Assembly: GCA_038214715.1 (NCBI GenBank)
Contig: JBBQRP010000012.1
Span: forward strand, 43,634 to 107,633
From: Thermoanaerobaculia bacterium
Lineage (GTDB): Bacteria > Acidobacteriota > Thermoanaerobaculia > UBA5066
Length of the DNA stretch: 64,000 nucleotides
Direction of reading: 5' to 3'
Shown here: positions 7,988 to 24,286 of the stretch, piece by piece
Layout of the letters: every line of letters begins with the position of its first letter
How positions within the stretch are numbered: position 1 is the first letter of the stretch
Notes under the pieces: model-generated
The model's database searches: none
Told to the model about the DNA's origin: nothing
The model's input: the letters and a program-made list of their open reading frames with translations, nothing else
Position numbers and translations under genes: made by a program

Positions 7988-9307
7988 GTGGACGTGACCA
8001 GGCTCTTTCAGACGCCCGAGAAGGCCGACGCCGGCCTGTCGTCGCTCGCCCGCGGCGTCGTCGGGTCCGAGATCCTGCGCATCGCCGGGGAAATCCGCGC
8101 GCTGCAGGCGAAGGGCCATCCCGTCTGCAATCTCACGATCGGCGACTTCGATCCACGGTACTTCCCGATCCCCAGGGCGCTTCTCGAGGGCACGCGCGCG
8201 GCCCTCGAAGCCGGCCAGACGAATTACCCTCCGGCGGAAGGGATCCTCCCCCTGCGCGAGGCGGTCGTGCGACTGTACGAGCGCGACCTCGGCCTCACCT
8301 ACCCCGTCGACTCGGTCGTGATCGCGGCGGGCGCACGTCCTCTTCTCTATGGGGCGTACCGGACGCTCGTCGACCCCGGCGACACGACGATCTATCCGGT
8401 CCCGACGTGGAACAACAATCACTACGCCTACCTTTCGGGCGCGCACGGCATCCCGGTGCCGGTCACCGCGGCGTCGAACTTCTTTCCGACGCCCGACCAG
8501 TTGAGTCCCCACCTCGCGTCCGCGCGGCTCCTCATCCTCAACTCTCCGCTGAACCCCACGGGGACCGTGATCTCGAAGGAAGCCCTCACGGCGATCACAG
8601 CGATGGTCGTCGACGAGAACCGGCGACGCGACCGCGCGGGCGGCAAGCCGCTGTACTTCGTCTACGACCAGGTCTACTGGACGCTCACGTTCGGCGCAGC
8701 CACGCACCACACGCCCGTCGAGGTCGTCCCCGAGAGCGCGCCCTACGTCATCTTTCTCGACGCGATCTCGAAGGCGTTCTGCGCGACCGGAATGCGCGTC
8801 GGCTGGGGCGTCATGCCCCCGGCGATCCGCAAGCGGATGTCCGACATCCTCGGACACGTCGGCGCCTGGGCGCCGAAGGCGGAGCAGGTTGGCGTCGCCG
8901 CTCTGCTCGACGATCCCGCCGCGGTCCACGCCCACCGCGAGAAGGTCCGCCGGGCGCTCGCCGAAAGGCTCGAGGCGCTCTATCGGGGCGTGATGGAGAT
9001 GAAGGCCGAAGGCTTCCCCGTCGACGCGATCGAGCCGCAGGGAGCGATCTATCTCTCCGCGCGCTTCGATCTCTGTGGCCGGACCATCCAGGGAACGCCG
9101 GTGAAGACGAACGACGACGTGCGGCGCCTCCTCCTCGGCGCTGGGCTCGGCGTCGTACCGTTCCAGGCGTTCGGACTCTCCGGCGACACGGGCTGGTTCC
9201 GGCTCTCGGTCGGGGCCGTCTCCACGGCGGACATCGCCGAAGCGTTTCCCCGCCTGCGCGCGCTTCTCGCTCCAGCCACCGCGATAGGGTTCTCGGCCAA
9301 CCCCTGA
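7988..9307 (+). CDS. PLP-dependent aminotransferase, class I/II (aspartate aminotransferase family)
   Basis: Fold-type I aminotransferase similarity with the PLP-lysine motif (DAISKAFCATGMRVGW). GTG start. Confidence 0.8.
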   Translation: MDVTRLFQTPEKADAGLSSLARGVVGSEILRIAGEIRALQAKGHPVCNLTIGDFDPRYFPIPRALLEGTRAALEAGQTNYPPAEGILPLREAVVRLYERDLGLTYPVDSVVIAAGARPLLYGAYRTLVDPGDTTIYPVPTWNNNHYAYLSGAHGIPVPVTAASNFFPTPDQLSPHLASARLLILNSPLNPTGTVISKEALTAITAMVVDENRRRDRAGGKPLYFVYDQVYWTLTFGAATHHTPVEVVPESAPYVIFLDAISKAFCATGMRVGWGVMPPAIRKRMSDILGHVGAWAPKAEQVGVAALLDDPAAVHAHREKVRRALAERLEALYRGVMEMKAEGFPVDAIEPQGAIYLSARFDLCGRTIQGTPVKTNDDVRRLLLGAGLGVVPFQAFGLSGDTGWFRLSVGAVSTADIAEAFPRLRALLAPATAIGFSANP

Positions 9308-9330
9308 ACCGCGGCGCTACACTTCCTGAC

Positions 9331-9993
9331 GTGAAGCAGGACAAGCGGACGGAGAAGAGCCGTGCGGCGATCCTCGAGGCATCGCTGGAACTGTTCTCGA
9401 GCCACGGGTACCGCGGCACGAGCATCCGCGAGATCGCCGAGGCTGCCGGCGTCTCGACCGGCAACGTCTACCACCACTTTCCCGACAAGGAGGCGATCTT
9501 CCAGACCGTCCTCGGACAATACTGGCAGGCGATCGAGAGCCCCGATTTTCCGTTCAACAGGGCGCTCGCGTCCGGCACGTTCCCCGACAACCTCGAGGAG
9601 CTCGCCGTCGCGGCCCGCGAGAGCGTGCGCCTCTGGCGACGCCACGTGGCGCTGATCTACGTCGACGTCGTCGAGCTCTCCGGGAATCACATCCGGAAGT
9701 TCTACTCGGAAATGGCGTCGCGCTTCGAACGATTCATCGTCACGCACGGCGAAGCGGTCTCCGGAGAGATCCGGCCCGGTGTCCCGGTTGCGACCGCGGT
9801 CATGCTCGCGAGCCGCGTCTTCCTGCAGTACTACGCCGTCGAGATCCTCTTCGGCGTCCCCCAGCAGTTCGGGAAGAACAGCGGCCTCGTCGTGGGAGAG
9901 ATCGCCGAGATCCTCCGCCACGGAATGCTCCGTGAGGACGCGGCGGCGGTTACGTCCGGCGGCCCGCGGCCCCTCGCCCGCGCCCGCCGTTAG
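9331..9993 (+). CDS. TetR family transcriptional regulator
   Basis: N-terminal TetR HTH (RAAILEASLELFSSHGYRGTSIREIAEAAGVSTGNVYHHF). GTG start 24 nt after the aminotransferase stop. The longer track ORF 6895..9993 is rejected upstream of this point. Confidence 0.78.
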   Translation: MKQDKRTEKSRAAILEASLELFSSHGYRGTSIREIAEAAGVSTGNVYHHFPDKEAIFQTVLGQYWQAIESPDFPFNRALASGTFPDNLEELAVAARESVRLWRRHVALIYVDVVELSGNHIRKFYSEMASRFERFIVTHGEAVSGEIRPGVPVATAVMLASRVFLQYYAVEILFGVPQQFGKNSGLVVGEIAEILRHGMLREDAAAVTSGGPRPLARARR

Positions 9994-10007
9994 GGCTTTC
10001 GGGCGGC

Positions 10008-12398
10008 CTACGCAGGCCCAGCGCCGCGCCCGACCCGCGAGAGGAATCGTTCCACGAGGAGCACGAACTCGTCCTCGCGCTCGACGATGAGGGCATGGCC
10101 CGAGTCCGGCACGACGACGAAGTCCGCCCCCGGGATCGCATCCGCGACGGCCTTCGTCCTCTCGAGGGGCATCGCTGCGTCGAGGCTCGCAGCCAGGACG
10201 AGAACGGGGCAGGAAATTCCCGGGAGAACGGACCTCAGGTCGACCTTCGCGAGCGCCGCGAGCAGATCCCGTAGCCCCGTGAACCATCCGGCCGGGAGCA
10301 GACCGACCTGCGCCCTTCGGGATGCGATCTCTTCCGCGTGCGCGGCCTGCCATTCGGGCCGGTACGCGAGCTGAACGATCGCGTCATAGACCTCCAGGCG
10401 ATCGCCTCCGTTCGCGGCGGCGCGCACGGCCTTCGCGAGTCTCTCACCCGCGCCGCCGGGCTTCCCGTCCGCGACGTCCGTCACCGTCGCCGCGACCAGG
10501 GACCTCACGCGCGTGGGGTGCCGGGCCGCGACAAGGAGCCCCACGTATGCCCCGTAAGAGGCCGCGACGACGTCGACGCATCTTTCGCCCAGCCCGTCGA
10601 GGAGCGCCGCGACGTCGTCCGCGTGCTCTTCCATGGAAGCGCGCGCGCCGGGGGAATGCAGCTGGCCCCGAAAATCGCAGCGGAGAACGCGGTGGGTGCG
10701 TGCGAAGCGCCGGGCGATCGGCTCCCACGCCGCCATCGACATCATGCCGCCGTTCAGGAGCAGCAGCGGCGAGCCTTCCCCGTCCACGCGGTGGGCGAGA
10801 ACACCGGAGAGAGGAGGAGGAGAAGAAGAAGGCGAAAATGAGTTTTTTGGATCGGAAGAGGAATGATATGCAGCTCTGAGGTCACCCTTGACGACCTTCC
10901 CGTAGGGCGTTCGCGGCAGGCTTTCGACGAAGACGAATTCCCGGGGGATCTTGTACCGAGCGAGGCGCGCCGAAACGAACTCGGCAAGCTCGGCCGCTGC
11001 CCCCGCGGGCCGCCCCTCTTCAACCTTCGAAGAATTCCTCTCTTCTCTTTCTTCTTCCCTCCGAACGACGAACGCGACGCTGGCCTCTCCCCACTTCTCA
11101 TCCGGGACGCCGACGACCGCGACGTCCTTCACGTCCGGGTGCTGGAAGAGCACGGCCTCGATCTCGGCCGGGTAGACGTTGACACCGCCCGAGATGAACA
11201 TGTCCTTCTTCCGGCCCGCGATCGTGAAGAAGCCGTCGGCGTCCTTCTTCGCGAGGTCGCCGGTGTGGAACCAGCTCCCGGAATCGAGCGCCGCCGCGGT
11301 CGCTTCCGGATTCCGGTAATAGCCCTGGCAGACGTGAGGCCCCTTGAGGAGGAGCTCCCCGACCTCGCCCGTCGCGACCTCGCGGCCCGCCTCGTCCGTC
11401 AGCCTCGCCTCCGTGAACATCATCGGCCGGCCGATCGAGCCGGCTTTCCGTATGGAATCCTCGAGGCTCATCGCGAAGCAGTTCACGCCGACCTCCGTGA
11501 GGCCGTAGCCCTGCTTGAAACTCGCACCGCGCGCGTGCCACGTCTCGATGATGTCCATCGGGAGCGGGGCGCCCCCGCTGATGAAGTAGCGGACGCTCGA
11601 GAAGTCGGCGGTCGGAAACGCGGGATGTTCCTGGAGCATCCGGAAGATCGTGGGGACGCCGAGCACGACCGTGCAGCGCTCCTTCGCGATCGACCCGAGA
11701 AGCCCGGCGGCGTCGAAACCAGGGTGGAGGACGATCGTCCCGCCGATCGCCAAAATCGGAGTCAGGAAGGCCGCGAGACCGCCCGCGTGGTAGAGAGGAG
11801 TGTAGATGGGGGAGACGTCGTCTTCGCGCAGCTGCCACGAAACGACCGTATTCACCGCGTTCCACGCGACCATCCGGTGCGGCACCATCACGCCCTTCGG
11901 CTTGCCGGTCGTGCCGGAGGTGTAGAGCAGGCCGTAAAGGTCCTCTGGTTTCGGAGAAGAGGAAAGAGAAGAGAAGATTTCTTCGAAGGTCGAAGAATAG
12001 AGTTCGTCGAGAACCGCGCCGGAGACTCCTCTTACCCTTCTCAGCAAATCTCTTCCGATCTCCTCGAATCCTGCGCCGTAAATCAGGGCTTTCGGTTCCG
12101 CGTCCTGGATCACGGCCTCGAGCTCCCCTGCCGTCAGTCGCGTGCTGAGCGGGACGAAGACGACCCCCGTCTTCCCGCACGCGAAAAAGATGTCGAGGAA
12201 CTCCACGCAGTTGCCCGCGAGAAGCGCGACCCGGTCGCCCTTTTTCAACCCGAGACCTTCGGTGAGCCAGCGGGCCGCGTCTCGCGCCCTGGAGTCGAGG
12301 TCCGCATATGTGAAGCGCCGACTCGTCGCGGCCTCGACGAGCGCGAGCTTCTCCGGCGACAAGCGCGCCCTTTCACCGAGGACGTCTCCGGAGATCAC
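10008..12398 (-). CDS. AMP-dependent synthetase/ligase (acyl-CoA-synthetase-like) fused to a C-terminal alpha/beta-hydrolase domain
   Basis: Adenylation motifs YTSGTTGKPKGV, GYGLTE, WFHTGDLA and GRKKDMFISGG. After an S/P-rich linker (SFSPSSSPPPLS) there is an alpha/beta-hydrolase fold with an AASYG nucleophile elbow and a DSGH His motif. The GTG start at 12398 forms a GTGA overlap with the upstream hydrolase stop; the track ORF extends to 12488. Confidence 0.8.
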   Translation of the reverse strand: MISGDVLGERARLSPEKLALVEAATSRRFTYADLDSRARDAARWLTEGLGLKKGDRVALLAGNCVEFLDIFFACGKTGVVFVPLSTRLTAGELEAVIQDAEPKALIYGAGFEEIGRDLLRRVRGVSGAVLDELYSSTFEEIFSSLSSSPKPEDLYGLLYTSGTTGKPKGVMVPHRMVAWNAVNTVVSWQLREDDVSPIYTPLYHAGGLAAFLTPILAIGGTIVLHPGFDAAGLLGSIAKERCTVVLGVPTIFRMLQEHPAFPTADFSSVRYFISGGAPLPMDIIETWHARGASFKQGYGLTEVGVNCFAMSLEDSIRKAGSIGRPMMFTEARLTDEAGREVATGEVGELLLKGPHVCQGYYRNPEATAAALDSGSWFHTGDLAKKDADGFFTIAGRKKDMFISGGVNVYPAEIEAVLFQHPDVKDVAVVGVPDEKWGEASVAFVVRREEEREERNSSKVEEGRPAGAAAELAEFVSARLARYKIPREFVFVESLPRTPYGKVVKGDLRAAYHSSSDPKNSFSPSSSPPPLSGVLAHRVDGEGSPLLLLNGGMMSMAAWEPIARRFARTHRVLRCDFRGQLHSPGARASMEEHADDVAALLDGLGERCVDVVAASYGAYVGLLVAARHPTRVRSLVAATVTDVADGKPGGAGERLAKAVRAAANGGDRLEVYDAIVQLAYRPEWQAAHAEEIASRRAQVGLLPAGWFTGLRDLLAALAKVDLRSVLPGISCPVLVLAASLDAAMPLERTKAVADAIPGADFVVVPDSGHALIVEREDEFVLLVERFLSRVGRGAGPA

Positions 12399-13342
12399 GG
12401 CTTTCCGGCCGGAGGCGTCGAGATCGTCGGCGCCGGAAGCGGGTTTTTGAGGATCTTCAAGAGGGCTTCCGCGAAGCGGTCGGGGCATTCCACCTGCGGC
12501 ACGTGGCCGCAGCGCTCGATCGTCGTGAGACGCGCGGCGGGAAGCTGCGCCGCGAGGCGCTTCGCGTAGTCGACGGAAAGGAGCTTGTCCGAGGCTCCCC
12601 AGAGGAGGTCCACCGGAATGTCGAAGCCGCCGAGCTTTCCGTCGAGAAGGTATGCGGGCATGCTCTTCCCTTCCGCCGCGATGCGCGCGATCGGGCCCGT
12701 CGCCGTCGTGCGGATCACGTCGTCGATGACGAAATTCGGGATGATCGGCGCGGAGGGATCGCGAAGGGCCTCAAACGTCCGGTCCGCTTCCGCACGGGTT
12801 TTCGGCTGCAGCGTGATGTCGAACCGGTCTCCGAGGAGCGGGCCGCCGTTCACGAGCACGAGGTGGTCGACGCGGTCCGGATGTTCCCGCGCCCAGACCG
12901 TCGCGACCCATGCGCCGAGAGAGTTTCCGACGAGAGTCACCCTGCCTGCCGGCAGCGTCTTCATGGCGCCGTCGAAGCCCGCGAGAAGCGTCGCGAAGGA
13001 AATCGGGCCGGAGGCGGGCGCGCTCTCACCGTGCCCTGCGAGGTCCACGGCGACCACCGAGAAGCTCTTCGAGACCAGGGGCGCGATCTTCGCCCAACCG
13101 CCCGCCTGGTCTCCCGCTCCGTGGAGGAGGACGACGGGGGCGCCGCCGCCGCCGGAGAAGACGCACTGCGGGCCCGCGGACGACGGCAGGACGTGTCTCT
13201 CGAAACCCGACGACGAGAGCTTTCGGCGGGAAAGCCACGCGAGGGTCGCGAGGGGACGCGTTCGGAAGACGAGCCCGGCGGCCGCCCCGAGGAGGAAAAG
13301 GATGGCGACGAGAACGAGAGCGATCTTCGCGGCGCTCGGCAT
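12395..13342 (-). CDS. Alpha/beta hydrolase with N-terminal membrane anchor
   Basis: N-terminal TM helix, HGAGDQ oxyanion region, GNSLG nucleophile elbow and C-terminal GHVPQ. Confidence 0.8.
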   Translation of the reverse strand: MPSAAKIALVLVAILFLLGAAAGLVFRTRPLATLAWLSRRKLSSSGFERHVLPSSAGPQCVFSGGGGAPVVLLHGAGDQAGGWAKIAPLVSKSFSVVAVDLAGHGESAPASGPISFATLLAGFDGAMKTLPAGRVTLVGNSLGAWVATVWAREHPDRVDHLVLVNGGPLLGDRFDITLQPKTRAEADRTFEALRDPSAPIIPNFVIDDVIRTTATGPIARIAAEGKSMPAYLLDGKLGGFDIPVDLLWGASDKLLSVDYAKRLAAQLPAARLTTIERCGHVPQVECPDRFAEALLKILKNPLPAPTISTPPAGKP

Positions 13343-13355
13343 GGATTCCCCGAGA

Positions 13356-14351
13356 CTAGACCATGCGGAAGGCCGCGCCGGCCATGTTGTAGCCCACTCC
13401 GGACGCGACGAGAACCACCAGGTCGCCCGTTCGAGCCTTTCCCTGGGAACGCGCGTCGTCGAGCGCCATCGCGACGCTCGCCGAGCCGGTGTAGCCCCAC
13501 TTCTCCATCACGAGATGGGTCTTCTCCATCGAGAGGCCAAGGTCTTTCATCACGATCTCGATCGTGGGCTTGCGCACCTGCGACAGGATCAGCATGTCGA
13601 TCTCCGCGACCGCGAACCCGCCGTCGAGGGCCATCTGCCGCACGAGCTTCGGCCACCCCTCGTTGTTGAGCTCGGGCGGATAGCGCTCGTTGAGCTTGAC
13701 GGACGTGCGGCCCGCCTTCACGGACTCGATCGAAGCCGGCTCGTCGGTACCCCCCGACAGGATCGCCCAGTTCCGGTTGTACGCGCCGTCCGCGCGGAAC
13801 CCGGACGAGACGAACCCGGGCACGTCCGACGGCTCGAGGACGGCGGCGCCCGCGCCGTCGCCGAAGAAGAAGATCATGGGGTCGTTCGGGTCCGTGAGCT
13901 TATGCATCATGTACGCGCCGATCGCGACGACCGTCTTGAGGGACTTGTTCGTCGCGATGAGGCCTGCGGCGGTCGCGAGACACGTCGGGAAGGATGCGCA
14001 GGCGCAACCCACGTCGAACGTTCCGGCGTTCTTCGCGCGGAGCTTGTGCTGGACGACGACCGATGTCGCCGGCGTGACGAAGTCCGGCGAGTCCGTACCG
14101 AGGAGGATGAGGTCGACGTCCTCGGGCCTCTTCCCGGCAGCGTCGAGGGCCTTGCGCGCGGCGCGGACGGCGAGATCGGAGGTCGCCCAGTCGGAAGGCG
14201 CCCACCAGCGCGTCAGGATCCCGCTCGCGGCCTCCATCTTGTCCACGAATTCCGGCGCGATCGACCGGAAGCGCTCGCGAAGGGCGTCGTTCGAGACTTC
14301 GATCTCCGGCACGTACGAGCCGGTTGCGACGATCCGGGCCGAGCGGGTCAT
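13356..14351 (-). CDS. KAS III (FabH)-like protein with a degenerate catalytic triad (Cys retained, His/Asn replaced)
   Basis: Collinear with E. coli FabH. The FDVGCACASF motif is present (Cys aligned with C112). The HQAN region reads SQVR and GNTSAAS reads GYTGSAS. Its ATG overlaps the upstream SDR stop (ATGA). Confidence 0.85.
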   Translation of the reverse strand: MTRSARIVATGSYVPEIEVSNDALRERFRSIAPEFVDKMEAASGILTRWWAPSDWATSDLAVRAARKALDAAGKRPEDVDLILLGTDSPDFVTPATSVVVQHKLRAKNAGTFDVGCACASFPTCLATAAGLIATNKSLKTVVAIGAYMMHKLTDPNDPMIFFFGDGAGAAVLEPSDVPGFVSSGFRADGAYNRNWAILSGGTDEPASIESVKAGRTSVKLNERYPPELNNEGWPKLVRQMALDGGFAVAEIDMLILSQVRKPTIEIVMKDLGLSMEKTHLVMEKWGYTGSASVAMALDDARSQGKARTGDLVVLVASGVGYNMAGAAFRMV

Positions 14352-15112
14352 GTGCCGAGCACCAGACCACCGTCCACGGAGAGCGTGGCGCCGTGGACGA
14401 AGGACGCCGCGTCCGACGCGAGCCAGAAGTACGCCTCCGCGATGTCCTCGGGCCTGCCCATCCGGCCGACCGGCGTTTTTGCAACCATCCCGAGAACCAC
14501 CTTTTCGGGCATGGCCTTGAGAATCTCCGTCGCGATGAAACCCGGGGCGACCGCGTTCACCCGGATGCCAAACTTCCCGAGCTCCCGCGCCCAGGTCTGC
14601 GTAAAGGAGATGACACCCGCCTTCGTGGCTGCGTAGTTCGTCTGGCCGAAGTTACCGTAGAGACCGACGACCGAGGACGCGTTCAGGACGACGCCGCTCC
14701 CCTGCCCGATCATCGCGGGAGCGACGGCGCGGGTGCAGTTGAAGACCCCCCTGAGGTTCACGGCGACGACGCGGTCGAAGTCGGCGTCCGACATCGTCGA
14801 GACGACGGCGCCGTCCTTCCACTTCACGAGCTGGGAGTCCCTGACGATCCCGGCGTTGTTCACGAGGATGTCGATCCGGGAGAAACGCGTGAGGACGTCC
14901 GCCACGGCGGCTTCGACAGCGGCCGCCTCCGTGACGTCCACGCGGCGACCCTCCGCCTCGGGCGCGCCCGCGGCGGCGAGGTCGGCCGCCACGGCGGCGG
15001 CGCCCTTCTCGTCCACGTCCCAGACGGAAACGGCGCACCCGTCCCGGGCGAACCGGAGGGCCGTCGCGCGGCCGATTCCGGCCGCGCCCCCCGTCACGAT
15101 CGCGACGCGCAT
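14348..15112 (-). CDS. Short-chain dehydrogenase/reductase (FabG-like 3-oxoacyl reductase)
   Basis: TGGAAGIGRAT Rossmann motif, NNAG and an S...YAATK catalytic set. ATG at 15112 lies 2 nt after the TonB-dependent receptor stop. The track ORF 14348..17869 is rejected upstream of this. Confidence 0.85.
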   Translation of the reverse strand: MRVAIVTGGAAGIGRATALRFARDGCAVSVWDVDEKGAAAVAADLAAAGAPEAEGRRVDVTEAAAVEAAVADVLTRFSRIDILVNNAGIVRDSQLVKWKDGAVVSTMSDADFDRVVAVNLRGVFNCTRAVAPAMIGQGSGVVLNASSVVGLYGNFGQTNYAATKAGVISFTQTWARELGKFGIRVNAVAPGFIATEILKAMPEKVVLGMVAKTPVGRMGRPEDIAEAYFWLASDAASFVHGATLSVDGGLVLGT

Positions 15113-15114
15113 GG

Positions 15115-17904
15115 TCAGAACGTCAGCCGGAGGCCCAGCTGGACTTCGCGCGGCGCCAGCGTCGCGCTCGCGTTCCCGAAATTCGAATTCGGCCGGAGCG
15201 CGGCGGCCGGATTGGCGATCGTCGGGCCAGCGAGATTCTGCGCGCCATCGATCGTCGACACGTCGTAGTTCACCGTGTTGAAGAGGTTGAAGGCCTCGGC
15301 GATCACCTCGACACCCACGCCCTGGAAGGCGAGCGTCTTCGTGATCCGGAGGTTCATGTTGCTGTAGCGCGGTCCGTCCATCCCGAAGCGGTCGACGCCC
15401 GGGGCCCGGTCGCCCGTCTTGCCGTCGCCGTTGAAGTCGTAGCCGAGGCGCTGCGTCCAGGGCTGTCCCGCGCCGTACTCGAACACGGGCGCCACGGCGA
15501 TCTGGAACGGGAGCCGGAAGACTCCGGAGAGGACGAAACGGTACTTCTCGGCCGAGCGCCCGCGTCCGTACTCGGCCTCCATGTTCGCGGGATCGCTCGG
15601 ATAGCCGGTCGGAAACTCGGGGCTGAAGTCGTCGGCGATGTTCTTTTTGCTCGCGAACGTGACGGAGGCCGTGACGAGGTGGCCACCCTTGATGTTGCCG
15701 TTCAGGCTGAGGACGAGGGCCTTGTACTCGGAGCGCCCGTCGTTCGTGTACATGTTGACCTGGTCGTACGTCGTGATCGGGCGGAGGTGAGTCGCGTTTC
15801 CGCTCCAGTTGATGTCGCGGATGACGATCTCGTCGCGGCCCTTGTTGTAGACCCCCTCGACGTCGGCGAAGAGGCCCGTCTGGCCCAGCCGTGCGGTGAA
15901 GCCGAGTGTCGCCTGGGTGGACTGAGGCGCTTTCAGGTCCGGCCCGAGGAGCGCGATCGCGGGCTTGCTGGGAATGCCGGTCGTCGTCGGGTGGGCCGGG
16001 TCGAGCGTGAGCGCCGGGATGCCGAAAAGCGCCCCGTTCAGGCGCGTAAACGTCACGCGGCCACCGACCTCGCCGTTCTGCTGGAGCTCGGAGAAGAGTG
16101 GCACGAGAAGGTAGCGGCCCGTGAAGATCCCGACGCCACCCCGCGCGACGTACTGGCCGGCTCCCGTGACGTCGTACGAGAAGCCGAGGCGCGGCTGGAA
16201 GTTCGTCGTGTCCACCTTGCGCCCGTTCGGGACGAGGGAGTGGTGGAAGTCGGGATCGTTCGCGTTCAGGTCCACGTCGTAACGCAGGCCGAGCGTGACC
16301 GAGAGCCGCGACGTCGGCTTCCATTCGTCCTGGAGGAAGCCCGCGAGCCGCGTCGTGTTCGCCTTGACGTCCGCCGAGCCAACGCCATACGCGTAGGCGA
16401 GGGGGAGCGCTTTCGTGTCGGTCAGCCACAGGAAGAGCCCGTTCTGGTAAGTGTCGATGCGCGACCGGTCCACGACGCGCTGGACGCCCGCGCCCGCTTT
16501 CACGTCGTGCGAGCCCGACCCGCCCGAAAGGTGGACGTTGATCGTGTCGCGCAGTTCCCACTGGTCGCCTTCGCCGAGGAGGTCGCCGAGGATGTTCGGC
16601 CCCGTCTGCAGCGTGTTTCCGCTGGAGAACCAGTCCGCGGGTACGCCGGTCGTGTTCGTCGGCTCGAAGTACTTCCGGCTGCCGTACTGCCCGCGAAGCT
16701 CGTTCACGGCCGTCGGCGAGAGCGTTGCCGTGTCGCCGAGGGTGACGTTCCAGTTGTCCCGCTGGAGCTCCTGCCCGTACGAGATGTCCGCGACGCCGCC
16801 CACCCGGAAGTTGTTCTCGCGGTAGCGGTCGTACTCGATCTTCGCGGTGAGCTGGTTCGAGCTCGAGAAGGAGTGGTCCACGCTTCCGAAGCCGAGGCTC
16901 TGGTGGAAAGGATGAGAGACGTCCGTGGCCCGGGACACGAACGCTCCCTGGGGCCGGAACAGGATGGGAGTCGTGGAGTTGATCTGCTCGAACGACGCGA
17001 AAAAGTGCGTGAAGTCCTTTACGATCGGGCCGCCGAGCGTGAATCCAAACTGGTTCCGCTGGTAGTCGACCGACGTGTCCTGCTCGCGCGCGCCCTTCGC
17101 GCGGAGCGACGCGCCCCGGTAAAAGCCGAAAGCCGACCCCGCGAGCGTGTTCGTTCCGGACTTCGTGACGACGTTGATGGCGCCGCCCGACGAGCCACCG
17201 ACCTCCGCGTCGAACCGGTTCGAGATCACCCGGAACTCGCTGATCGCGTCCTGCGAGAACTTCGCCTTCGCGAGTCCGAGCGCCGGATCGGTGAAGTCCA
17301 CGCCGTCCACGAGAATCGTCGACTGGCTCGCGTTGCCACCTCCGCCGACGACGGGCCCTCCCGTGATGAAGCGGAAGGCCCCGCGCTCGCGCTCGACGCC
17401 CGGCGTGATGAACGCGAGGTTCTGGAAGTCGCGGTCCGGGGTCGGGAGATCCTTGATCTGCTCGGGCGTGATGTTCGTCGACGAGTCGCTCTTGAAGACG
17501 TCCACGAGCGGCACCGACGCGACGACGTTCACGCTCTCCGATCTCTGGCCCTGCAGCGTCGCGCTGATCTTTCCGCTCTGCCCGACGAGGAGGACGACGC
17601 CCTTCCGTTCGACCGGCGCGAAGCCGGAGAGCGTCACGGTCACGTCGTACGCTCCGGGCGGCAGCGCAGCGAAGGACGCCGTTCCGGCGCTTCCGGTGGT
17701 GCTCGTCCGCGAGAATCCCGTGTCGGGCCGCCTCACGCCGACCGTGGCTCCGGGCATCGGGCCACCCGAGCCGTCCAAGGCCACGACGTCGAGCGAGGCC
17801 GTCGCCGTCTGCGCGGCGGCCGGGAGGGACGCGAACGTCAGAGCCAATACAGCGGCGAGCGCGATCCACCCGTTAGGTTTCGCGAGTCTCCTGCGAGTCA
17901 CCAT
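15115..17904 (-). CDS. TonB-dependent outer-membrane receptor with N-terminal carboxypeptidase-regulatory-like domain
   Basis: Signal peptide, CarbopepD_reg-like beta-sandwich (AYDVTVTLSGFAPVERKGV), plug domain (ILVDGVDFTD, GGAINVVTKSG), a long beta-barrel and a C-terminal aromatic residue (LRLTF). AGGAGG RBS 6 nt upstream. Confidence 0.85.
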   Translation of the reverse strand: MVTRRRLAKPNGWIALAAVLALTFASLPAAAQTATASLDVVALDGSGGPMPGATVGVRRPDTGFSRTSTTGSAGTASFAALPPGAYDVTVTLSGFAPVERKGVVLLVGQSGKISATLQGQRSESVNVVASVPLVDVFKSDSSTNITPEQIKDLPTPDRDFQNLAFITPGVERERGAFRFITGGPVVGGGGNASQSTILVDGVDFTDPALGLAKAKFSQDAISEFRVISNRFDAEVGGSSGGAINVVTKSGTNTLAGSAFGFYRGASLRAKGAREQDTSVDYQRNQFGFTLGGPIVKDFTHFFASFEQINSTTPILFRPQGAFVSRATDVSHPFHQSLGFGSVDHSFSSSNQLTAKIEYDRYRENNFRVGGVADISYGQELQRDNWNVTLGDTATLSPTAVNELRGQYGSRKYFEPTNTTGVPADWFSSGNTLQTGPNILGDLLGEGDQWELRDTINVHLSGGSGSHDVKAGAGVQRVVDRSRIDTYQNGLFLWLTDTKALPLAYAYGVGSADVKANTTRLAGFLQDEWKPTSRLSVTLGLRYDVDLNANDPDFHHSLVPNGRKVDTTNFQPRLGFSYDVTGAGQYVARGGVGIFTGRYLLVPLFSELQQNGEVGGRVTFTRLNGALFGIPALTLDPAHPTTTGIPSKPAIALLGPDLKAPQSTQATLGFTARLGQTGLFADVEGVYNKGRDEIVIRDINWSGNATHLRPITTYDQVNMYTNDGRSEYKALVLSLNGNIKGGHLVTASVTFASKKNIADDFSPEFPTGYPSDPANMEAEYGRGRSAEKYRFVLSGVFRLPFQIAVAPVFEYGAGQPWTQRLGYDFNGDGKTGDRAPGVDRFGMDGPRYSNMNLRITKTLAFQGVGVEVIAEAFNLFNTVNYDVSTIDGAQNLAGPTIANPAAALRPNSNFGNASATLAPREVQLGLRLTF

Positions 17905-17974
17905 CTCGTCCTCCTGAATGCCGCTCGTGCGGCGGACCTCAACTTGCTAAATCCCGAACACTCGGTATGTTTTT

Positions 17975-18004
17975 ACGATAGCCGTGATGAAGAAGCGCTG
18001 TCAA
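17975..18004 (-). promoter_or_regulatory. Putative sigma70-like promoter (TTGACA-18-TATCGT) upstream of the TonB-dependent receptor operon
   Basis: Minus-strand reading GGCTTGACAGCGCTTCTTCATCACGGCTATCGTAAAAACA in the 135-nt gap upstream of the receptor gene. Confidence 0.3.
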
Positions 18005-18039
18005 GCCGAAAGTCCCCGCGTTAACAGGCGTTCCGGCGG

Positions 18040-19902
18040 TCAGCGCCGGTCGCGCGTCCGCGAGCGCCCGCGATTCGCGAGCTTTTCCGTGAGCTGGAGG
18101 TTCCGGCGAATCTGCTCGAGCATCTTCGCCTCGAGCCCGCGCCCGGCGGAGACCCGCGTGTCCCGCCTCTTCGCGCGGCCGAAGGCCTGCCGCGCGGCGC
18201 GTGCGTCCCCGAGCGCGAGGTACGCCAGGCCGAGATGGGTCAGGCCGGTAGGCGTCTCGCCCAGGTCCGTCGCGCGGCGCAGACATTCGACCGCGCGGTC
18301 GTATTCGCGGCGCTTGTAGTGGACCCAGCCCTTGGCGGCGAGCGGGAACTGACGCATCTCCTTCGGTGAGAGCTTGAGCGAGAGGTCCGCGAGCTCGAGG
18401 GCCGCGTCGAGGTCCTCGCCCATCTCCGCGAGCGTGGAAGCGCGCTGGAAATACGCGATCGAACGCGCGTAATTCGACTTCACGACGCCGAGCATCTCCT
18501 CGGCGACGCGGCTTCCCTCCCGGAACTTTCCCTCGGCCTTCAGCGCTTCGAGCAGCGTCGTGTAGGCGGCGGCCGCCACCATTTCGCCGGGAGCCCGGGA
18601 AAGCACGCGGCGCGTCGTCGCGACCGCCTCCGACGTTCGCCCCACGGCCGAGCACAGAAGCGCATAGGCAATCAGAAGCGTCGGGTTCTCCGGGTCCAGC
18701 TTCAGGGCCCGCCGGTAGAGCGCCATCGCCTTGCCGGGATCGCGCACCGCGGCAGCCTCGGCCTTCCGCGCGAGGACCGCGGCCTCGCCCGCGACCTTCG
18801 GGAGGGCCCGCGCGCCCGAGGGTGCAAGGAGCTTCGAGGCCTCCTGATATTCGATGCGGTTCGGGTTCAGCTCGAGGGCGGACTGGAACCTCTCGGCGGC
18901 CTTCTGCGTCCATCCGCGATCGAGATAGCAGAGCCCGAGCTGGTAGAGCGCGTCCTCGTCGTCGGGATCGAGGCGGGACGCCTTCTGGAATGCCTCGGTC
19001 GCCTCGGTGAGGCGGCCGCGCTCGTACGCGATCGTCCCGAGGAGCGAATAGGCCTGCGCGTTCTCGTCGATCGCAACGGCTTTCTTGAGGAACGTCTCCG
19101 CGCGCGCGAGCTGTCCCTTCAGCGCGAAGAGCGCGCCGAGCGTGAAGTATGGAAGGAACGCGTCGGGCTTGATCGCCACGGCCTCCTTGAGGACCTCGAG
19201 CGCACGGTCCGTGCGGCCCGCCTCGTTTTCGAGGACACCCGTGTACACGAGAGCGTCGAAGTGCTTCGGTTCCTTCGCGAGGACCGCGCGCAGCATCGTG
19301 GCGGCACGGTCGGTTTCCCCTTCGTTGAAATACGTCTCGCCGAGGAAGAACGCGAGATCAGCGTTTCGCTTGTCGAGCCGGTAAGCCTCCTCGAGGACCT
19401 TCACGGCCTTGTCCGGATCGAGCGCATAGAACGCGAATTCGGCGTCGGAGAGGAGACCCTTGAAGCGCTCCCGCCGCTCGCCCGAAAATCCGCCGAGCAC
19501 GCGTTCCTTTCTCTCGAGGAAGCGCTCGCGCTTCTCCATCGCGGTCATGTGGTGGTCGACCCGTGTCTCCCAGAGATCGAGGAGCTCCTCCTCGACGAGA
19601 AGGCCCTTCCTCTCGAGCAGGTCCTTGAGCGCGAGGAGTCCCGTCTGTGCGACGAAACCGTTCTTCTCCTGCCGGTTGAGCGCTTCGAGCAGCATCTTGA
19701 GCGTCTCGGCGCTGCGCTTGACGATTTCCTCGAGGACGCTGACTCTCTCGAGGAGGTGCTCGTCCATCGAGACGCCTTCTTCCTGCTGAGTCGCCTCCTC
19801 GTACGCGTCGGTCGCGCCCGACACGACGAGGAGCTTGCTCTGGCACTTGACGCAGTATTCCCGGTCGAGCTCGTTCGACGCCCCGCAGACCTGACAGATC
19901 AC
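18040..19902 (-). CDS. Zinc-ribbon plus multi-TPR repeat protein (cytoplasmic, hypothetical)
   Basis: N-terminal C4 motif (CQVCG...CVKCQ) followed by about 10 TPR-like repeats. The GTG start at 19902 forms a GTGA overlap with the hbd stop. A 70-nt-overlapping ATG at 19968 is the alternative. Confidence 0.65.
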
Positions 19903-20774
19903 GAGAGCTTCTCGCCTCCGGGCCCGTCGTACCGGTAGAACCCCCTCCCCGCCTTCCGCCCGTGCCATCCCGCGTCCACCATCTGGACGAGGAGCGGGCA
20001 GGGGCGGTACTTGTCGTCCCCGAGCCCGCCGTGCAGGACCCTCAGGATCGCGAGACACGTGTCGAGCCCGATGAAATCCGCGAGCGTGAGGGGCCCCATC
20101 GGGTGATTCATGCCGAGCTTCATGATGCCGTCCACCGCGTCGGGCGTCGCGACGCCTTCGTAGACGGCGAAGAATGCTTCGTTCAGCATGGGCAGCAGGA
20201 TGCGGTTCGAGACGAACCCGGGGAAGTCGCGGCACAAAAGTGGCGTCTTCCCCATCTCTTTCGCGAGCGCGAGGACGACCTCCGTCGTCTCGTCCGAGGT
20301 TGCGATTCCGCGGATCACCTCGACGAGGGCCATCACGGGAACGGGATTCATGAAGTGCATGCCGATGAAACGGTCAGGCCTCGTCGTCCGCGCGGCGAGC
20401 CTCGTGATCGAGATGGACGACGTGTTCGTCGCGAGGATCGTGTGCGGCGGGGCGAGGGCGTCGAGCCTGGCGAACAGGTCCTTCTTGACGGCCTCGTTCT
20501 CGAGGATCGCTTCGACGACGAGGCCTGCCTCCGCGAGGCGGCCGAGGTCCGCCGTCGCCGTCACGCGCCGCAGCGCGGCGTCCCGGTCGCCGGGCGTGAC
20601 ACGCCCCTTGTCCACCTGCCGCGCCAGGTTCTTCTCGATCGTGGCGAGGCCGCGTCCCGCGAGATCGGGCGTCACGTCGACGAGCACGACCCTCTTGCCC
20701 GCGAGTGCGGCGACGTGCGCGATGCCCGCTCCCATCTGTCCGGCGCCCACCACGCCGATCGTTGCCGGTGTCAT
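19899..20774 (-). CDS. 3-hydroxyacyl-CoA / 3-hydroxybutyryl-CoA dehydrogenase
   Basis: [17 protein letters not shown]-binding motif and a C-terminal 3HCDH domain. ATG at 20774; the track ORF extends to 20915. Confidence 0.85.
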
Positions 20775-20827
20775 CGGGATTTCGTCTCCTTCGCGCGGCC
20801 GCCTTTCGGCCGCTCGACGCGAGCCTA

Positions 20828-21769
20828 TCAGGAGGCGGCGGAGGCGAGGTGCGGCTCGCCGGACGTGGCGGCGGCAAGCGCGACGCCGATCCCGGCGAGG
20901 GACGAGAGGCTCCACAGGACGGGGCCCAGCGCCGGCAGGAGAGAGAGGAGCCCGAGGAGAACGAGGCCGGCGGCGAGCGCCGCGGGATCGCCGAACAGGA
21001 GGCTGCCGCGCCGGGCGCCCCTCGTGAGTCGCCGCCCGAGCGCCACGAAGACGACCGCGAGGCCGAAGATCTTGGCGGCGGCGAGGAGGACGAGGAGAAC
21101 CGCGGAAACGGCGAGCGCCGGGCGCGCCGGAAGGACGGACAGCGCGAAGGCGGCGAGGAAGAAGGCTGTCAGGACGCCGGTGGCGCCGAGCGCCGCGAGG
21201 AACGCGAGGCGCCCCGGAGCGTCGTCCGCGGCCCGGAGCAGCCGGCGCGGCGCAAGAAACAGGAGACAGAAGGAGACGACGAGCCAGGCGAAGAGGAGAA
21301 AGAGCCGGAACGACAGGATGAGCGGCGAGGTCTTTCCCGCGGCCAAAGGCGAGGTCTCGAGCTCGGAGAGGGCCGCGGCCTCGAGCGCGGAAATCGACCG
21401 GATGTGTCCCCCCACCTGTTCGCCCCCCCTATTTTCTTCGAGGGTAAGAGAGCCGCCCACCGACAGCACGTCGCCGTCGATGCGGGCGCCCCGCTCGATG
21501 GTTGCCGAGGATCCCAGAAGAATGAGATCCCGCCGAATGCGGCCCGACACGATTGCGCGGCCCCCTCCGACGAGCACCGCGCTCCCGCTCAATTCACCTT
21601 CCAAGAAAATCTTCCTTCCGAGAACAACGACATCTCCCGGGCGGACCGTGCCCTTCGGGATCACGATGGAGTTCCCGTCCCCGGGCGCGGCGGAAGCTGC
21701 GGCTCCCGCGACGATCAGGAACGAAGCCAGGATCACCCGGCATACGGTCAAGCGAGGCGAGCGACCCAA
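20828..21769 (-). CDS. Membrane protein with N-terminal bactofilin-like (polymer-forming, DUF583-type) beta-helical repeat domain and polytopic C-terminal region
   Basis: Signal/anchor segment, then repeated GxxVxGxVxxD motifs ([41 protein letters not shown]...), then 4-5 hydrophobic helices. The start is TTG in the track; a GTG slightly downstream is possible. Confidence 0.55.
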
Positions 21770-21781
21770 GTCTGTCCCGGG

Positions 21782-22309
21782 TCAGCCGCGAGGCGTGCCG
21801 AAGTCCGTGCGCGCGAGGCGCGAGGGACGACGGAAAAGCCGCCGCGCGAGCGTGGCGAAGATCGCACCCGATCCGATGAGTGCCCCCGCGAGAGCCTGCC
21901 GGGTGCCCGGAGAACCCGACAGGACCGCGCCGATGCCTTCCGCCAGGGTCGGGATCGAGGAAAGGAGGGCGGGCAGTCCGGCCGCGGTGCCAGCCGCCAT
22001 GACCCTGGCCCACATCTCGAGGGCTGTTCCGGGACCGAGCGACCAGAGAGGTGCGAGAAAGACGATGACGCTGGCCGACAGCAGAAAGGAGGCCGCCATG
22101 GCCGGAATTCGCCAGGCTCGGGCGCTCCTGACCTCCCACGGTGCGAAGGGGCGTGCAGCCATCACGCGCGCAGTCAGGCTGGCCTCCCAGACAGAAGAGG
22201 GTGTGCCTGTAACACATTCATCAAGAAGGAGTTCTAGGCGAACGTCCCTCTCCAGGTCCTCCCTGGAAGGCGACCTCTCGTCCGGGGCGCGGGGGGCGAT
22301 CTCGACCAT
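21782..22309 (-). CDS. Putative anti-sigma factor (single-pass membrane protein)
   Basis: Lies immediately downstream of the ECF sigma (10-nt gap, GAGGAAG RBS). Has a cytoplasmic N-domain and one TM helix. No recognisable family. The track ORF extends to 22366. Confidence 0.5.
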   Translation of the reverse strand: MVEIAPRAPDERSPSREDLERDVRLELLLDECVTGTPSSVWEASLTARVMAARPFAPWEVRSARAWRIPAMAASFLLSASVIVFLAPLWSLGPGTALEMWARVMAAGTAAGLPALLSSIPTLAEGIGAVLSGSPGTRQALAGALIGSGAIFATLARRLFRRPSRLARTDFGTPRG

Positions 22310-22319
22310 CCTGCTTCCT

Positions 22320-22901
22320 CTATACGATGTCCCGGGGCAAAAGATCTCGCAAAGCCTGCCGTGCACGAAACAGCTTGTTCTTGACGGTCCCGAGCGGCAT
22401 CCCTTTCAGCTCGGCAATTTCCTCGTAGGGCATCTCCCCGTAGTGGCGGAGGCTGATGAGCTCGCGGTAGTCGTCGGGAAGCCGGTCGATCGCCTCTGCA
22501 AGCGCGATTCGAAGGCGCTGACGGGTCAGCTCTTCGTGGGGGCTGGGACGCGTCTCGGGGGGGTCGACGGACCGCGCTTCGCCGTCCTCTCCGGGAGGCC
22601 GCTCGAGCGGAAGCGTCCGAACGCGCCGGCGGCGGAGATGGTCGATGGCCGCGTTCCCCGCGATCCGGAAGAGCCACGTGGAAAACTTGAAATGAGGATC
22701 GAACGAATCGAGGGCGCCGTACACTTTGATGAAGACGTCCTGGGTCACGTCGCGCGCGTCCTCGACGTCGTACGTGAAACGCTCCACGTAGCGCGAGAGG
22801 CGGGTCCGGTAGCGGTCCACGAGGACGGCGAAGAGGTCGGTATCGCCCTCGAGAATCAGTTTCACCAGCTCCGCGTCACCCCTGATTTCGGAAGACGCCA
22901 T
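22320..22901 (-). CDS. ECF (group IV) RNA polymerase sigma factor
   Basis: Sigma-70 region 2 (DVTQDVFIKVYGALDSFDPHFKFSTWLFRIAGNAAIDHLRRR) and region 4 HTH (ELISLRHYGEMPYEEIAELKGMPLGTVKNKLFRARQAL). Confidence 0.85.
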   Translation of the reverse strand: MASSEIRGDAELVKLILEGDTDLFAVLVDRYRTRLSRYVERFTYDVEDARDVTQDVFIKVYGALDSFDPHFKFSTWLFRIAGNAAIDHLRRRRVRTLPLERPPGEDGEARSVDPPETRPSPHEELTRQRLRIALAEAIDRLPDDYRELISLRHYGEMPYEEIAELKGMPLGTVKNKLFRARQALRDLLPRDIV

Positions 22902-22981
22902 GATGAGATCGTGTCATATGAATGGTTGCGCAAGCTTCTAGAATGTTCAGTCGGGCACTGACACCACGAAGGAGGATTCCC

Positions 22982-24286
22982 GTGACTTTGAGGCATGAAT
23001 CCACGTCCGGCGTTCTGAAACATACCGCCAAGGGAGAAACGCCCACCATCAATCCGTTCGAAGAAATGACGTCGCGCTTCGACCGCGCGGCCGAGCTCCT
23101 CGGGCTCGATCCCGGTCTCCGCAAGGTGCTCCGCGAACCCATGAAGGAAGTGAAGGTCGGCATCCCCGTCGTCATGGACAACGGGAAAATAGAGGTCTTC
23201 GTCGGCTACCGCGTCCACCACAACGTGGTTCGCGGGCCCGCGAAGGGCGGCATCCGCTACGACCCCGGCGTGAATCTCGACGAAGTCCGCGCGCTCGCGG
23301 CCTGGATGACGTGGAAGTGCGCCGTCATGAACATCCCGTTCGGCGGAGGCAAGGGCGGCGTGGTCTGTGATCCGCGCAAGCTCTCGCGCGGCGAGCTCGA
23401 GAGGATCACGCGGCGCTATACGGCGGAGATGATGGACGTCTTCGGCCCCGAGCGCGATGTCCCCGCGCCCGACGTAGGCACGGACTCCCAGACCATGGCG
23501 TGGCTCATGGACACGTACTCGATGCACGTCGGCCACACCGTCACTTCCGTCGTGACCGGCAAGCCCATCTCGCTCGGTGGGTCGCGCGGACGCGCGGAGG
23601 CGACGGGCCGCGGCGTCATGATCGCGGGCCGCGAAGCCTGCCGCGCGCACGGCATCCCGCTCTCGGGAGCCCGCGTCGTCGTCCAGGGCTTCGGCAACGT
23701 CGGATCGATCTCCGCGAAGATGTTCCACGAGCAGGGCGCGAAGATCGTCGCCGTCTCGGACATCAATGGCGCGATCCAGAACAAGAAGGGCCTCGACGTT
23801 CCGGCGCTCCTCGCGTACATGGTCGACAAGAAGACGGTCGTCGGTTTCCCCGGCGGGATCCCGATGGATTCGGCCGACCTCCTCACGACCGATTGCGACA
23901 TCCTCGTCCCCGCCGCGCTGGAGAACCAGATCACGAAAGAGAATGCGAACGGCATCAAGGCGAAGATCATCGTCGAGGGCGCGAACGGCCCGACGACGCA
24001 CGAAGCGGACGACATCTTCCAGAAGAAGGGCATCCTCGTCGTTCCGGACATTTACGCGAACGGCGGCGGCGTGACCGTCTCCTACTTCGAGTGGGTCCAG
24101 GACCGCATGGGCTTTTTCTGGCGCGAGAAAGAAGTCAACGAACGCCTCGAGGAGATGATGGTCCAGTCGTTCATGGACATCCGCGAGATGGCGACGAAAC
24201 ACAAGGTGACGTACCGCATCGGTGCCTACATGGTCGCGATTCAGCGCGTCGCGCACGACCTGCAGATCCGCGGCCTGTACGCCTGA
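22982..24286 (+). CDS. gdhA: Glutamate dehydrogenase (Glu/Leu/Phe/Val dehydrogenase family)
   Basis: KGGIRY lysine motif, GFGNVG Rossmann motif. GTG start preceded by an AAGGAGG RBS; the track ORF begins at 22922. Confidence 0.9.

Follow-up and report, generated by a model that had tools for sequence, protein, structure and literature searches.

Loci in which an outer-membrane receptor of the TonB type leads a set of catabolic genes are known, and include the SusC-type polysaccharide utilisation loci and the receptor-linked uptake of aromatic acids in sphingomonads. Control of an esterase and beta-oxidation gene cluster by a TetR regulator, which represses the cluster and is released by acyl-CoA, has also been described (PMC6449355). 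Here we analyse a 64,000-nucleotide stretch of DNA from a Thermoanaerobaculia bacterium of the Acidobacteriota (contig JBBQRP010000012.1, positions 43,634 to 107,633; this whole stretch is hereafter the window), in which ten genes on the minus strand at 10008-22901 had been taken, in a reading made without database searches (the sequence-only reading), for one cluster headed by an extracytoplasmic function (ECF) sigma factor. The conserved unit at this place is smaller, and consists of a promoter and operator followed by genes for a TonB-type receptor, a short-chain dehydrogenase/reductase (SDR), a FabH-like protein, an alpha/beta hydrolase and a ligase::hydrolase fusion, together with a TetR-family regulator gene; the remaining genes, from the sigma factor to a tetratricopeptide repeat (TPR) protein, are a separate, lineage-specific neighbour. 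The explanation that we favour, with a confidence that is a little better than even, is that 9310-18004 is a self-contained TetR-repressed operon which imports an ester-bearing organic acid into coenzyme A (CoA) metabolism. Tight coupling of the genes, a promoter and palindromic operator of their own, and recurrence across phyla with interchangeable importers were all computed here.

The first gene of the conserved cassette, on the minus strand like the four that follow it, encodes the outer-membrane TonB-type receptor (TBDR; 929 amino acids, 15115-17904). Downstream are the classical SDR (254 amino acids, 14348-15112, Pfam adh_short), a FabH-fold protein resembling 3-oxoacyl-acyl carrier protein (ACP) synthase III (KAS III) and here called CTY-KAS (13356-14351, Pfam ACP_syn_III N and C domains), alpha/beta hydrolase 'b' (12395-13342, Pfam) and a fusion of an acyl-CoA synthetase with alpha/beta hydrolase 'a' (10008-12398, Pfam; ligase at about 10863-12398 and hydrolase at about 10008-10823). 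The junctions from the TBDR to the ligase measure 2, -4, 13 and -4 nt, the overlaps being ATGA for SDR and KAS (14348-14351) and GTGA for hydrolase 'b' and ligase (12395-12398). The 2 nt between the TBDR stop and the SDR start had been overlooked in the sequence-only reading, as had the gene for the TetR-family regulator on the plus strand (9310-9993; PF00440, E 3e-19), which is convergent with the end of the cassette and ends 15 nt from the ligase stop. The window is about 68% G+C, so that lists of open reading frames (ORFs) are crowded with spurious frames, and genes were picked by third-position G+C and inspection of start codons; the ten co-directional minus-strand genes of 10008-22901 all have third-position G+C of the coding type. 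None of the lower five cassette proteins reached an NCBIfam equivalog cut-off, and no thiolase, CoA-transferase or ATP-binding cassette (ABC) transporter genes were found elsewhere within the 64-kb window.

For comparison, 80 loci from species-representative genomes were collected and analysed by tblastn and ORF clustering; the named genomes of this set are all Acidobacteriota (Thermoanaerobaculia, Holophagae, Sulfomarinibacteraceae and Vicinamibacterales), and a relative is encoded in 388 species in total. The KAS was present in 78 of the 80 loci, the ligase in 71, hydrolase 'b' in 69, the SDR in at least 66 and the receptor in 58, with TetR in 44, hydrolase 'a' as a gene of its own in 38, and an SCP2-type thiolase and a third hydrolase in 33 each. 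TBDR orthologues of 52-63% identity immediately precede the SDR in most of these loci, the TetR orthologue adjoins the cassette on either its upstream or its downstream side (44 of approximately 80), and in relatives the ligase and hydrolase 'a' are encoded as separate, adjacent genes. Identities across the acidobacterial classes are 68-89% for KAS, SDR and thiolase. The genes for the sigma factor, a 175-amino-acid protein, a membrane protein, Hbd and the TPR protein, however, were found only in some 13-15 loci with KAS identity of at least 81%, where synteny is expected from descent alone, and Pfam-annotated example loci gave the same pattern of conserved and non-conserved genes. The coupling of receptor, SDR, KAS III-like protein, hydrolase and AMP-ligase that had been pointed out in the sequence-only reading is thus real and strongly conserved across acidobacterial loci, being kept in distant relatives, but the sigma-to-TPR genes are kept in close relatives only. 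As all five are missing wherever KAS identity is no higher than 71% and the cassette has its own promoter and operator, the single ECF-sigma-headed cluster proposed there is not supported. It is from this conservation of the locus, together with the promoter and operator footprint in the gap upstream of the TBDR, that the conserved unit is defined as the cassette plus TetR.

That gap, of 135 nt between the end of the TPR gene (18040) and the start of the TBDR gene (17904), contains a sigma-70-type promoter on the minus strand (TTGACA-18-TATCGT, 17975-18004), which is the sole promoter-like site in 9800-23300. Just downstream of its -10 box is a palindromic operator candidate, ACCGAGTGTTCGGG (CCGA-N4-TCGG, 17953-17966, minus strand), found once in the window; the sequence-only reading had noted neither promoter nor operator. 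In an alignment of 19 upstream regions, taken from loci that span 67-90% in KAS identity, the TTGAC and TA...T positions of the promoter and the CCGA and TCGG half-sites of the palindrome were invariant, and the flanks varied. Of 55 loci, 14 have a strict CCGA-N4-TCGG ahead of the TBDR start at a distance of 150 nt or less, compared to 0.35 expected from motif density, and at loci with TetR ahead of the TBDR it is located upstream of TetR instead. Pairing of TetR with this operator is therefore predicted, as the regulator adjoins the cassette, the palindrome is at the promoter and the palindrome moves with TetR. Rfam and tRNA scans had no match anywhere in the window, and a riboswitch or other leader RNA was rejected on this ground. 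Cassette lineages without the palindrome (L002, L019-L021, L025, L027, L035 and others) have a G+C-rich hairpin, GGGCGC-N3-5-GCGCCC, situated 15-45 nt upstream of the receptor start and directly before the ribosome-binding site, which may be a different regulatory element. Double-length TetR proteins (388-456 amino acids) were seen beside CTY-KAS modules outside the Acidobacteriota (L085 16684-17910, L090 11764-13134, L118 7984-9207 and L127 8795-9961), and those of L090, L118 and L127 have two TetR_N stretches.

Beyond the Acidobacteriota the same enzyme set was found with other importers. The cultured archaeon Thermofilum adornatum has thiolase-SDR, ligase-hydrolase-hydrolase and genes for ABC ATPases and permeases, after which come the KAS and a soluble binding protein (L084 11088-12617). 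In Caldisericia hydrolase-hydrolase-KAS-SDR is followed by a soluble binding protein (L085 11776-13350) and ABC genes, and these in turn by genes for a double TetR, for a CoA-transferase and for a thiolase. An Anaerolineales locus has KAS-ligase-hydrolase-SDR-ligase-hydrolase and then binding protein and ABC genes, and a Firmicute-like locus has an SDR, binding protein and ABC genes and then hydrolase-KAS-KAS'-CoA-transferase. A further 80 metagenome loci, retrieved by the pattern GYTG[SN][AGP]C, gave the same picture (among the 23 with at least 3 kb on both sides, a hydrolase was present within 6 kb in 19, a ligase or CoA-transferase within 6 kb in 17 and ABC importer genes in 11). Orthology across these phyla holds for both lineages of hydrolase, for the SDR (39-60% identity) and for the ligase (38-49%). 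A large soil lineage combines TetR, a 1112-amino-acid receptor with the architecture of that in the window, hydrolase, KAS, ligase, hydrolase and a major facilitator superfamily (MFS) carrier of an organic-anion symporter family, the receptor being found in about 20 contigs and the carrier in about 14. The ABC systems beside CTY-KAS are Liv-type with a binding protein, and binding-protein-dependent ABC systems import only; that importers accompany the module argues for uptake rather than biosynthesis. When the binding proteins were compared, all the relatives obtained were uncharacterised or of aromatic-acid type, and this did not settle the matter. CoA-transferases resembling butyryl-CoA:acetate transferase (290-316 bits, below the cut-off) stand in for the ligase in several modules, suggesting that the role of the ligase is CoA activation of a free acid, and loci without the usual hydrolases have a non-orthologous Lipase_2 or PGAP1-like hydrolase in their place, suggesting that the conserved role there is ester hydrolysis.

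The sequence-only reading had called the active site of the FabH-like protein a degenerate FabH triad, where in fact it is an invariant alternative signature. The window protein aligns over its full length with FabH structures (E 7e-44) and keeps the nucleophilic Cys, but in PDB alignments Ser stands where FabH has its His, and Tyr where FabH has its Asn. Throughout 197 family members the Cys and the Tyr are both invariant (197/197 each) and the His position is occupied by Thr in 196 and by Ser in one, this being the window protein. The counterpart of FabH Arg249, the ACP-docking residue of the E. coli enzyme, is Pro; the E. coli numbering in this family alignment is provisional, and for the active-site positions the PDB alignments independently point to these columns. 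When 1.8 billion representatives were searched, the signature marked out a broad clade of 31-55% identity with the motifs FTQ(V/I)N and GYTGSAC, which stands apart from canonical Cys-His-Asn FabH sequences and has named members in Caldisericia, Anaerolineales and the archaea Thermofilum and Infirmifilum. An AlphaFold model of the KAS (pLDDT, the predicted local distance difference test, of 91) has TM-scores of 0.88-0.90 to FabH structures, with OleA absent from its top 50 fold matches, and the protein scores below the curated FabH cut-offs (NF006829, 195 versus 249; TIGR00747, 167 versus 292). Its invariance across the clade argues that Cys-Thr/Ser-Tyr is a stable alternative active site and not decay. 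From the loss of the His/Asn pair, the Pro at Arg249 and the occurrence in an archaeon, we infer that CTY-KAS is ACP-independent and acts without decarboxylative condensation. Some modules have tandem KAS genes (L089-L094), which suggests heterodimers, and at L087 (10001-12026) the second KAS is of PRK06840 type (487 bits, above the cut-off) with a Cys-His-His pattern.

The SDR has PDB 4NBW as a close match (E 1e-92), and scores 265 bits with FabG models, which is below the 298-bit cut-off. The catalytic Ser-Tyr-Lys is present, there is no basic residue in the Gly motif, and by alignment all of the module SDRs have Asp at the end of beta2, where by established SDR classification this residue marks a preference for NAD(H). 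The window SDR shares with 4NBW both this NAD-type Asp and a nine-residue insertion, and 4NBW belongs to the 4NBT-4NBW series of FabG homologues. The series was reportedly chosen for NADH dependence, and its 4NBV-4NBW proteins were reportedly studied by Javidpour et al. in 2014 as isolated reductases for engineering. PMC5627680 confirms the reference for 4NBV. The window enzyme is likely to be an NAD(H)-type FabG relative functioning as a 3-hydroxyacyl/3-oxoacyl-CoA dehydrogenase. In Thermofilum the SDR gene (L084 1282-2256) overlaps that of the thiolase before it, and the SDR is extended at its N-terminus by about 75 residues without a Pfam match; this extension might be a DUF35-like OB module tying the reductase to the thiolase.

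For the ligase, Pfam gave PF00501 (E 8e-92) and PF13193, the motifs YTSGTTGKPKG, GYGLTE and a C-terminal GK are present in the translation, and the nearest structures are the fatty-acyl/feruloyl-CoA synthetases 8weu and 8wev and FadD13 (E 1e-97 to 1e-103). The linker joining it to hydrolase 'a' is rich in Ser and Pro (about 10824-10900, minus strand: SSSDPKNSFSPSSSPPPLSG), and there is a Glu/Arg-rich insertion in the C-terminal domain of the ligase (10930-11010, minus strand: RREEEREERNSSKVEEGR); third-position G+C collapses locally at just one place in the cluster (10801-11100), which coincides with these two features. Hydrolase 'b' has the nucleophile motif GNSLG, a catalytic His and, in Acidobacteriota, an N-terminal membrane anchor, and its best PDB match is 6i8w, which we take to be the phospholipase PlaF, aligned from residue 11 with the N-terminal helix included. 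Hydrolase 'a' is nearest to the carboxylesterases 4uhc and 4q3l (short-chain) and to the 3-oxoadipate enol-lactonase 2xua. The thiolase of relatives is of the SCP2/archaeal type. A third alpha/beta hydrolase of about 290 amino acids, which is enol-lactonase-like, comes after the ligase::hydrolase in L001 (14471-15334) and in 33 other loci, and is missing from the window.

The receptor comprises a signal peptide, a CarboxypepD_reg domain (PF13620), about 125 amino acids at the place of the plug and a TonB-type beta-barrel (PF25183, OMP_b-brl_4, E 1e-71; PF00593, TonB_dep_Rec, E 1e-12). No match to the Plug hidden Markov model (HMM) was obtained for it even at E up to 10, though those approximately 125 residues separate CarboxypepD_reg from the barrel, and the L134-type receptor gave a borderline Plug match of 22.9 bits against a cut-off of 23.9.

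In the mechanism that we propose, the receptor would carry the compound over the outer membrane, the membrane-anchored hydrolase and the ligase-fused hydrolase would cut its ester or lactone bond or bonds, and the FadD13/MenE-like ligase would turn the freed acid into a CoA thioester, of which the 3-hydroxyacyl form would be converted to the 3-oxo form by the NAD-dependent FabG-like SDR. The Cys-Thr/Ser-Tyr enzyme, acting without ACP or decarboxylation, could then form an acyl-Cys intermediate and either pass the acyl group to CoA or carry out a retro-Claisen reaction on a beta-dicarbonyl, and in many relatives an SCP2- or PhaA-type thiolase would supply the last step. Release of TetR from its operator would presumably be brought about by the product CoA ester or by the substrate itself. 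Uptake and CoA-dependent breakdown are favoured over biosynthesis because of the importers, the TetR operator at the promoter, the NAD-type dehydrogenase, the use of CoA-transferase for ligase, the frequent thiolases and the interchangeable esterases. There is no acyl-CoA dehydrogenase or hydratase in the module, suggesting that the acid is already 3-hydroxylated or 3-oxo; complete beta-oxidation was rejected on this ground, and on the lack of thiolase, CoA-transferase and ABC genes elsewhere in the window.

Our best specific guess at the substrate, which we think unlikely to be correct as it stands, is 3-hydroxyalkanoate oligomers or esters. Such oligomers, being anionic, ester-linked and R-configured, would fit, though as a weak candidate; the lipase of L118 has the polyhydroxybutyrate (PHB) depolymerase PhaZ7 as its best PDB match (E 4e-7, partial length), and matches to i_nPHAscl reached 50-105 bits against a 300-bit cut-off. 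More tentatively than for the operon itself, and well short of even confidence, we suggest that CTY-KAS is a new catalytic class of the thiolase superfamily, with ACP-independent ester-to-thioester transacylation or beta-dicarbonyl retro-Claisen cleavage as the key step of a widespread and undescribed pathway for using an abundant natural ester (3-hydroxyalkanoate oligomers for example), which would be common to Acidobacteriota, Chloroflexota, Caldisericota and Thermoproteota, each with an importer suited to its envelope.

Several points weigh against the import and catabolism that we favour. The direction of flux was read from gene context alone, the window clade is without the thiolase, and a route of esterase, ligase, dehydrogenase and thiolase would need no CTY-KAS, though the KAS is the best conserved of the genes. 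An identity of 68-89% is more than peripheral catabolism would usually show for KAS, SDR and thiolase, and a core role in anabolism would fit it as well; a thiolase with a FabG-like reductase is the set proposed for ACP-independent fatty-acid synthesis in archaea. On the side of the receptor, the plug domain of the window protein is unrecognised by Pfam and, in Myxococcus, a connection with export has been made for Oar-type receptors built in this way; on the side of control, read-through from the sigma unit into the cassette may occur, no terminator having been found after the TPR gene.

The strongest of the competing explanations, though still an unlikely one, is that the module is anabolic or serves salvage, in which case CTY-KAS and the FabG-like reductase would build the CoA-activated acid into a cell lipid or other component and the hydrolases would be acyltransferases or remodelling lipases. 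The very high conservation would suit this, as would the place of the SDR near FabG homologues that reduce 3-oxoacyl thioesters, the resemblance of the membrane-anchored hydrolase to 6i8w and weak matches to the alpha/beta-fold O-acyltransferases OlsI and MetX, and the ligase-hydrolase fusion could couple activation with acyl transfer. Against it stand an NAD-type SDR, the ability of a fermentative-type CoA-transferase to take the place of the ligase, control by a TetR repressor, and the lack of any ACP, dehydratase or enoyl reductase. The module also occurs in an archaeon, which has ether lipids, and the lipase-type replacements point to ester hydrolysis as the conserved role.

TetR-repressed import and catabolism remains our preferred reading, and it has also to be set against the improbable case that in the window clade all ten genes are one ECF-sigma regulon, concerned with envelope stress or lipid remodelling and reaching the cassette by read-through or from a second promoter. 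The neighbouring unit, also on the minus strand, comprises the ECF-type sigma factor (22320-22901, Pfam and NCBIfam), the 175-amino-acid presumed anti-sigma factor, so labelled by position only (21782-22309), a membrane protein of 313 amino acids without a family (20828-21769), the 3-hydroxybutyryl-CoA dehydrogenase Hbd (19899-20774; NF004474, 426 bits, above the 408-bit cut-off) and the Zn-ribbon/TPR protein (18040-19902; Pfam TPR families, with CxxC...CxxC visible at the N-terminus), the last two genes overlapping as GTGA at 19899-19902; the presumed anti-sigma, hbd and TPR genes are lineage-restricted. As the sequence-only reading had it, the ten minus-strand genes run head to tail with the junctions and the 135-nt gap that it gave, and Pfam bears out its domain calls for the sigma factor, Hbd, TPR protein, TBDR, SDR, KAS III, hydrolase and ligase::hydrolase; the 'anti-sigma' and 'bactofilin-like' proteins matched no Pfam or NCBIfam family and these two labels are not confirmed. 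In favour of a single regulon, all ten genes are co-directional, the layout is kept in about 13 close relatives and a terminator scan detected none after the TPR gene (its matches were fewer than in shuffled sequence and all were within genes). But the synteny at KAS identities of at least 81% is what common descent would give, carriers at a greater distance all lack the sigma unit, the gap holds a conserved sigma-70 promoter and operator, and neither an STN domain on the receptor nor a FecR-type anti-sigma factor was found by Pfam. Fec-type trans-envelope signalling was rejected for want of these domains and because the receptor is conserved without the sigma unit.

Outside both units, a glutamate dehydrogenase ORF on the plus strand (22922-24286), whose counterpart in L001 is annotated ELFV_dehydrog, is separated from the divergent sigma gene by just 20 nt (22902-22921), and its true start is probably a later Met, which would leave room for a shared divergent promoter region. 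A class I/II aminotransferase gene (7988-9307, plus strand) is directly upstream of and co-directional with TetR, with the same pair present in L001, and TetR may be co-transcribed with it.

Very improbable is a cassette that makes a secreted small molecule, such as a metallophore or signal, which the receptor would retrieve. Siderophore clusters with a receptor, an adenylating enzyme, an SDR and an esterase do exist, but there is no non-ribosomal peptide synthetase (NRPS), NRPS-independent siderophore (NIS) synthetase, carrier protein or exporter here, the regulator is TetR and not Fur-type, the ligase is of the fatty-acyl/feruloyl-CoA type, and homologous modules use ABC importers and a CoA-transferase with thiolase. 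Menaquinone synthesis (MenE/MenH) and biotin synthesis (BioZ/BioH/FabG) had been suggested by sub-threshold HMM matches and were rejected, as there are no other men or bio genes and the triad is wrong for BioZ, and so was a complex like PhlACB or the archaeal thiolase-HMG-CoA-synthase-DUF35 complex, as the bacterial loci have no DUF35 gene and their KAS and thiolase are not adjacent. The head-to-head condensation to a beta-lactone or olefin, for which the sequence-only reading had seen a mirror of OleABCD, is largely refuted and hardly to be credited, since the four broad superfamilies are shared (thiolase-fold, SDR, alpha/beta hydrolase and ANL adenylating enzyme) but the KAS, SDR and hydrolases of the window fall in different subfamilies from their Ole counterparts and the ligase probably does so too: the KAS matches OleA only at E 4e-15 over residues 245-325 (3row, 3s21), against 7e-44 for FabH, and is without the His/Asn pair; the SDR is classical and not extended as in OleD, with no PF01073 match and FabG homologues nearest; the ligase is nearest FadD13 and feruloyl-CoA synthetases among the structures compared, and the CoA-transferase that stands in for it cannot make a beta-lactone; the hydrolases are carboxylesterase- and enol-lactonase-like and not OleB-like, with 50 bits against the 241-bit cut-off of the haloalkane dehalogenase model; and importers and TetR accompany the module.

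Acidobacteriota have very many TonB receptors of the CarboxypepD_reg type, the substrates of almost all of which are unknown, and a receptor that is tied in hundreds of species to a defined, regulator-controlled set of enzymes makes its substrate experimentally approachable. The modules of archaea and other phyla, with their soluble binding proteins, offer easy identification of a ligand. The invariant Cys-Thr-Tyr site also means that thousands of proteins annotated as '3-oxoacyl-ACP synthase III' are probably not fatty-acid synthases, which bears on how metabolism is reconstructed from soil, sediment and hot-spring genomes.

As to novelty, the suggestion of the sequence-only reading that this coupling is undescribed stands to the extent that no account of the module or of the Cys-Thr-Tyr clade was found in NCBIfam or the searchable literature, an absence that is no proof of novelty. 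The closest systems each share a part of it. Like SusC-type and other TonB receptor-led catabolic loci, the window operon has the receptor as its first gene, degradative enzymes and a regulator predicted to respond to the substrate, and its receptor has the CarboxypepD_reg N-terminal extension of SusC- and Oar-type receptors, but in contrast to SusC-type polysaccharide loci it has no SusD partner or glycoside hydrolases and has esterases and CoA-dependent enzymes instead. The KAS has the fold of FabH, the same two Pfam domains and the Cys at the same position, but the malonyl-decarboxylating His-Asn pair of FabH is Thr/Ser-Tyr throughout the CTY clade, and CTY-KAS genes are found in transporter and esterase operons rather than fab operons, in an archaeon as well as in bacteria. 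The TetR (FadR) cluster of Sulfolobus acidocaldarius is alike in its TetR, semi-palindromic operator, esterases and lipases, thiolase-superfamily genes and acyl-CoA metabolism, but encodes full beta-oxidation with acyl-CoA dehydrogenase and hydratase, both of which the window module lacks, and in the window module a transporter is integral, whereas the Sulfolobus paper reports no Cys-Thr-Tyr KAS or dedicated importer (PMC6449355). The arrangement is best read as a catabolic operon led by a receptor and controlled by a regulator, with an undescribed FabH-like class of enzyme at its centre.

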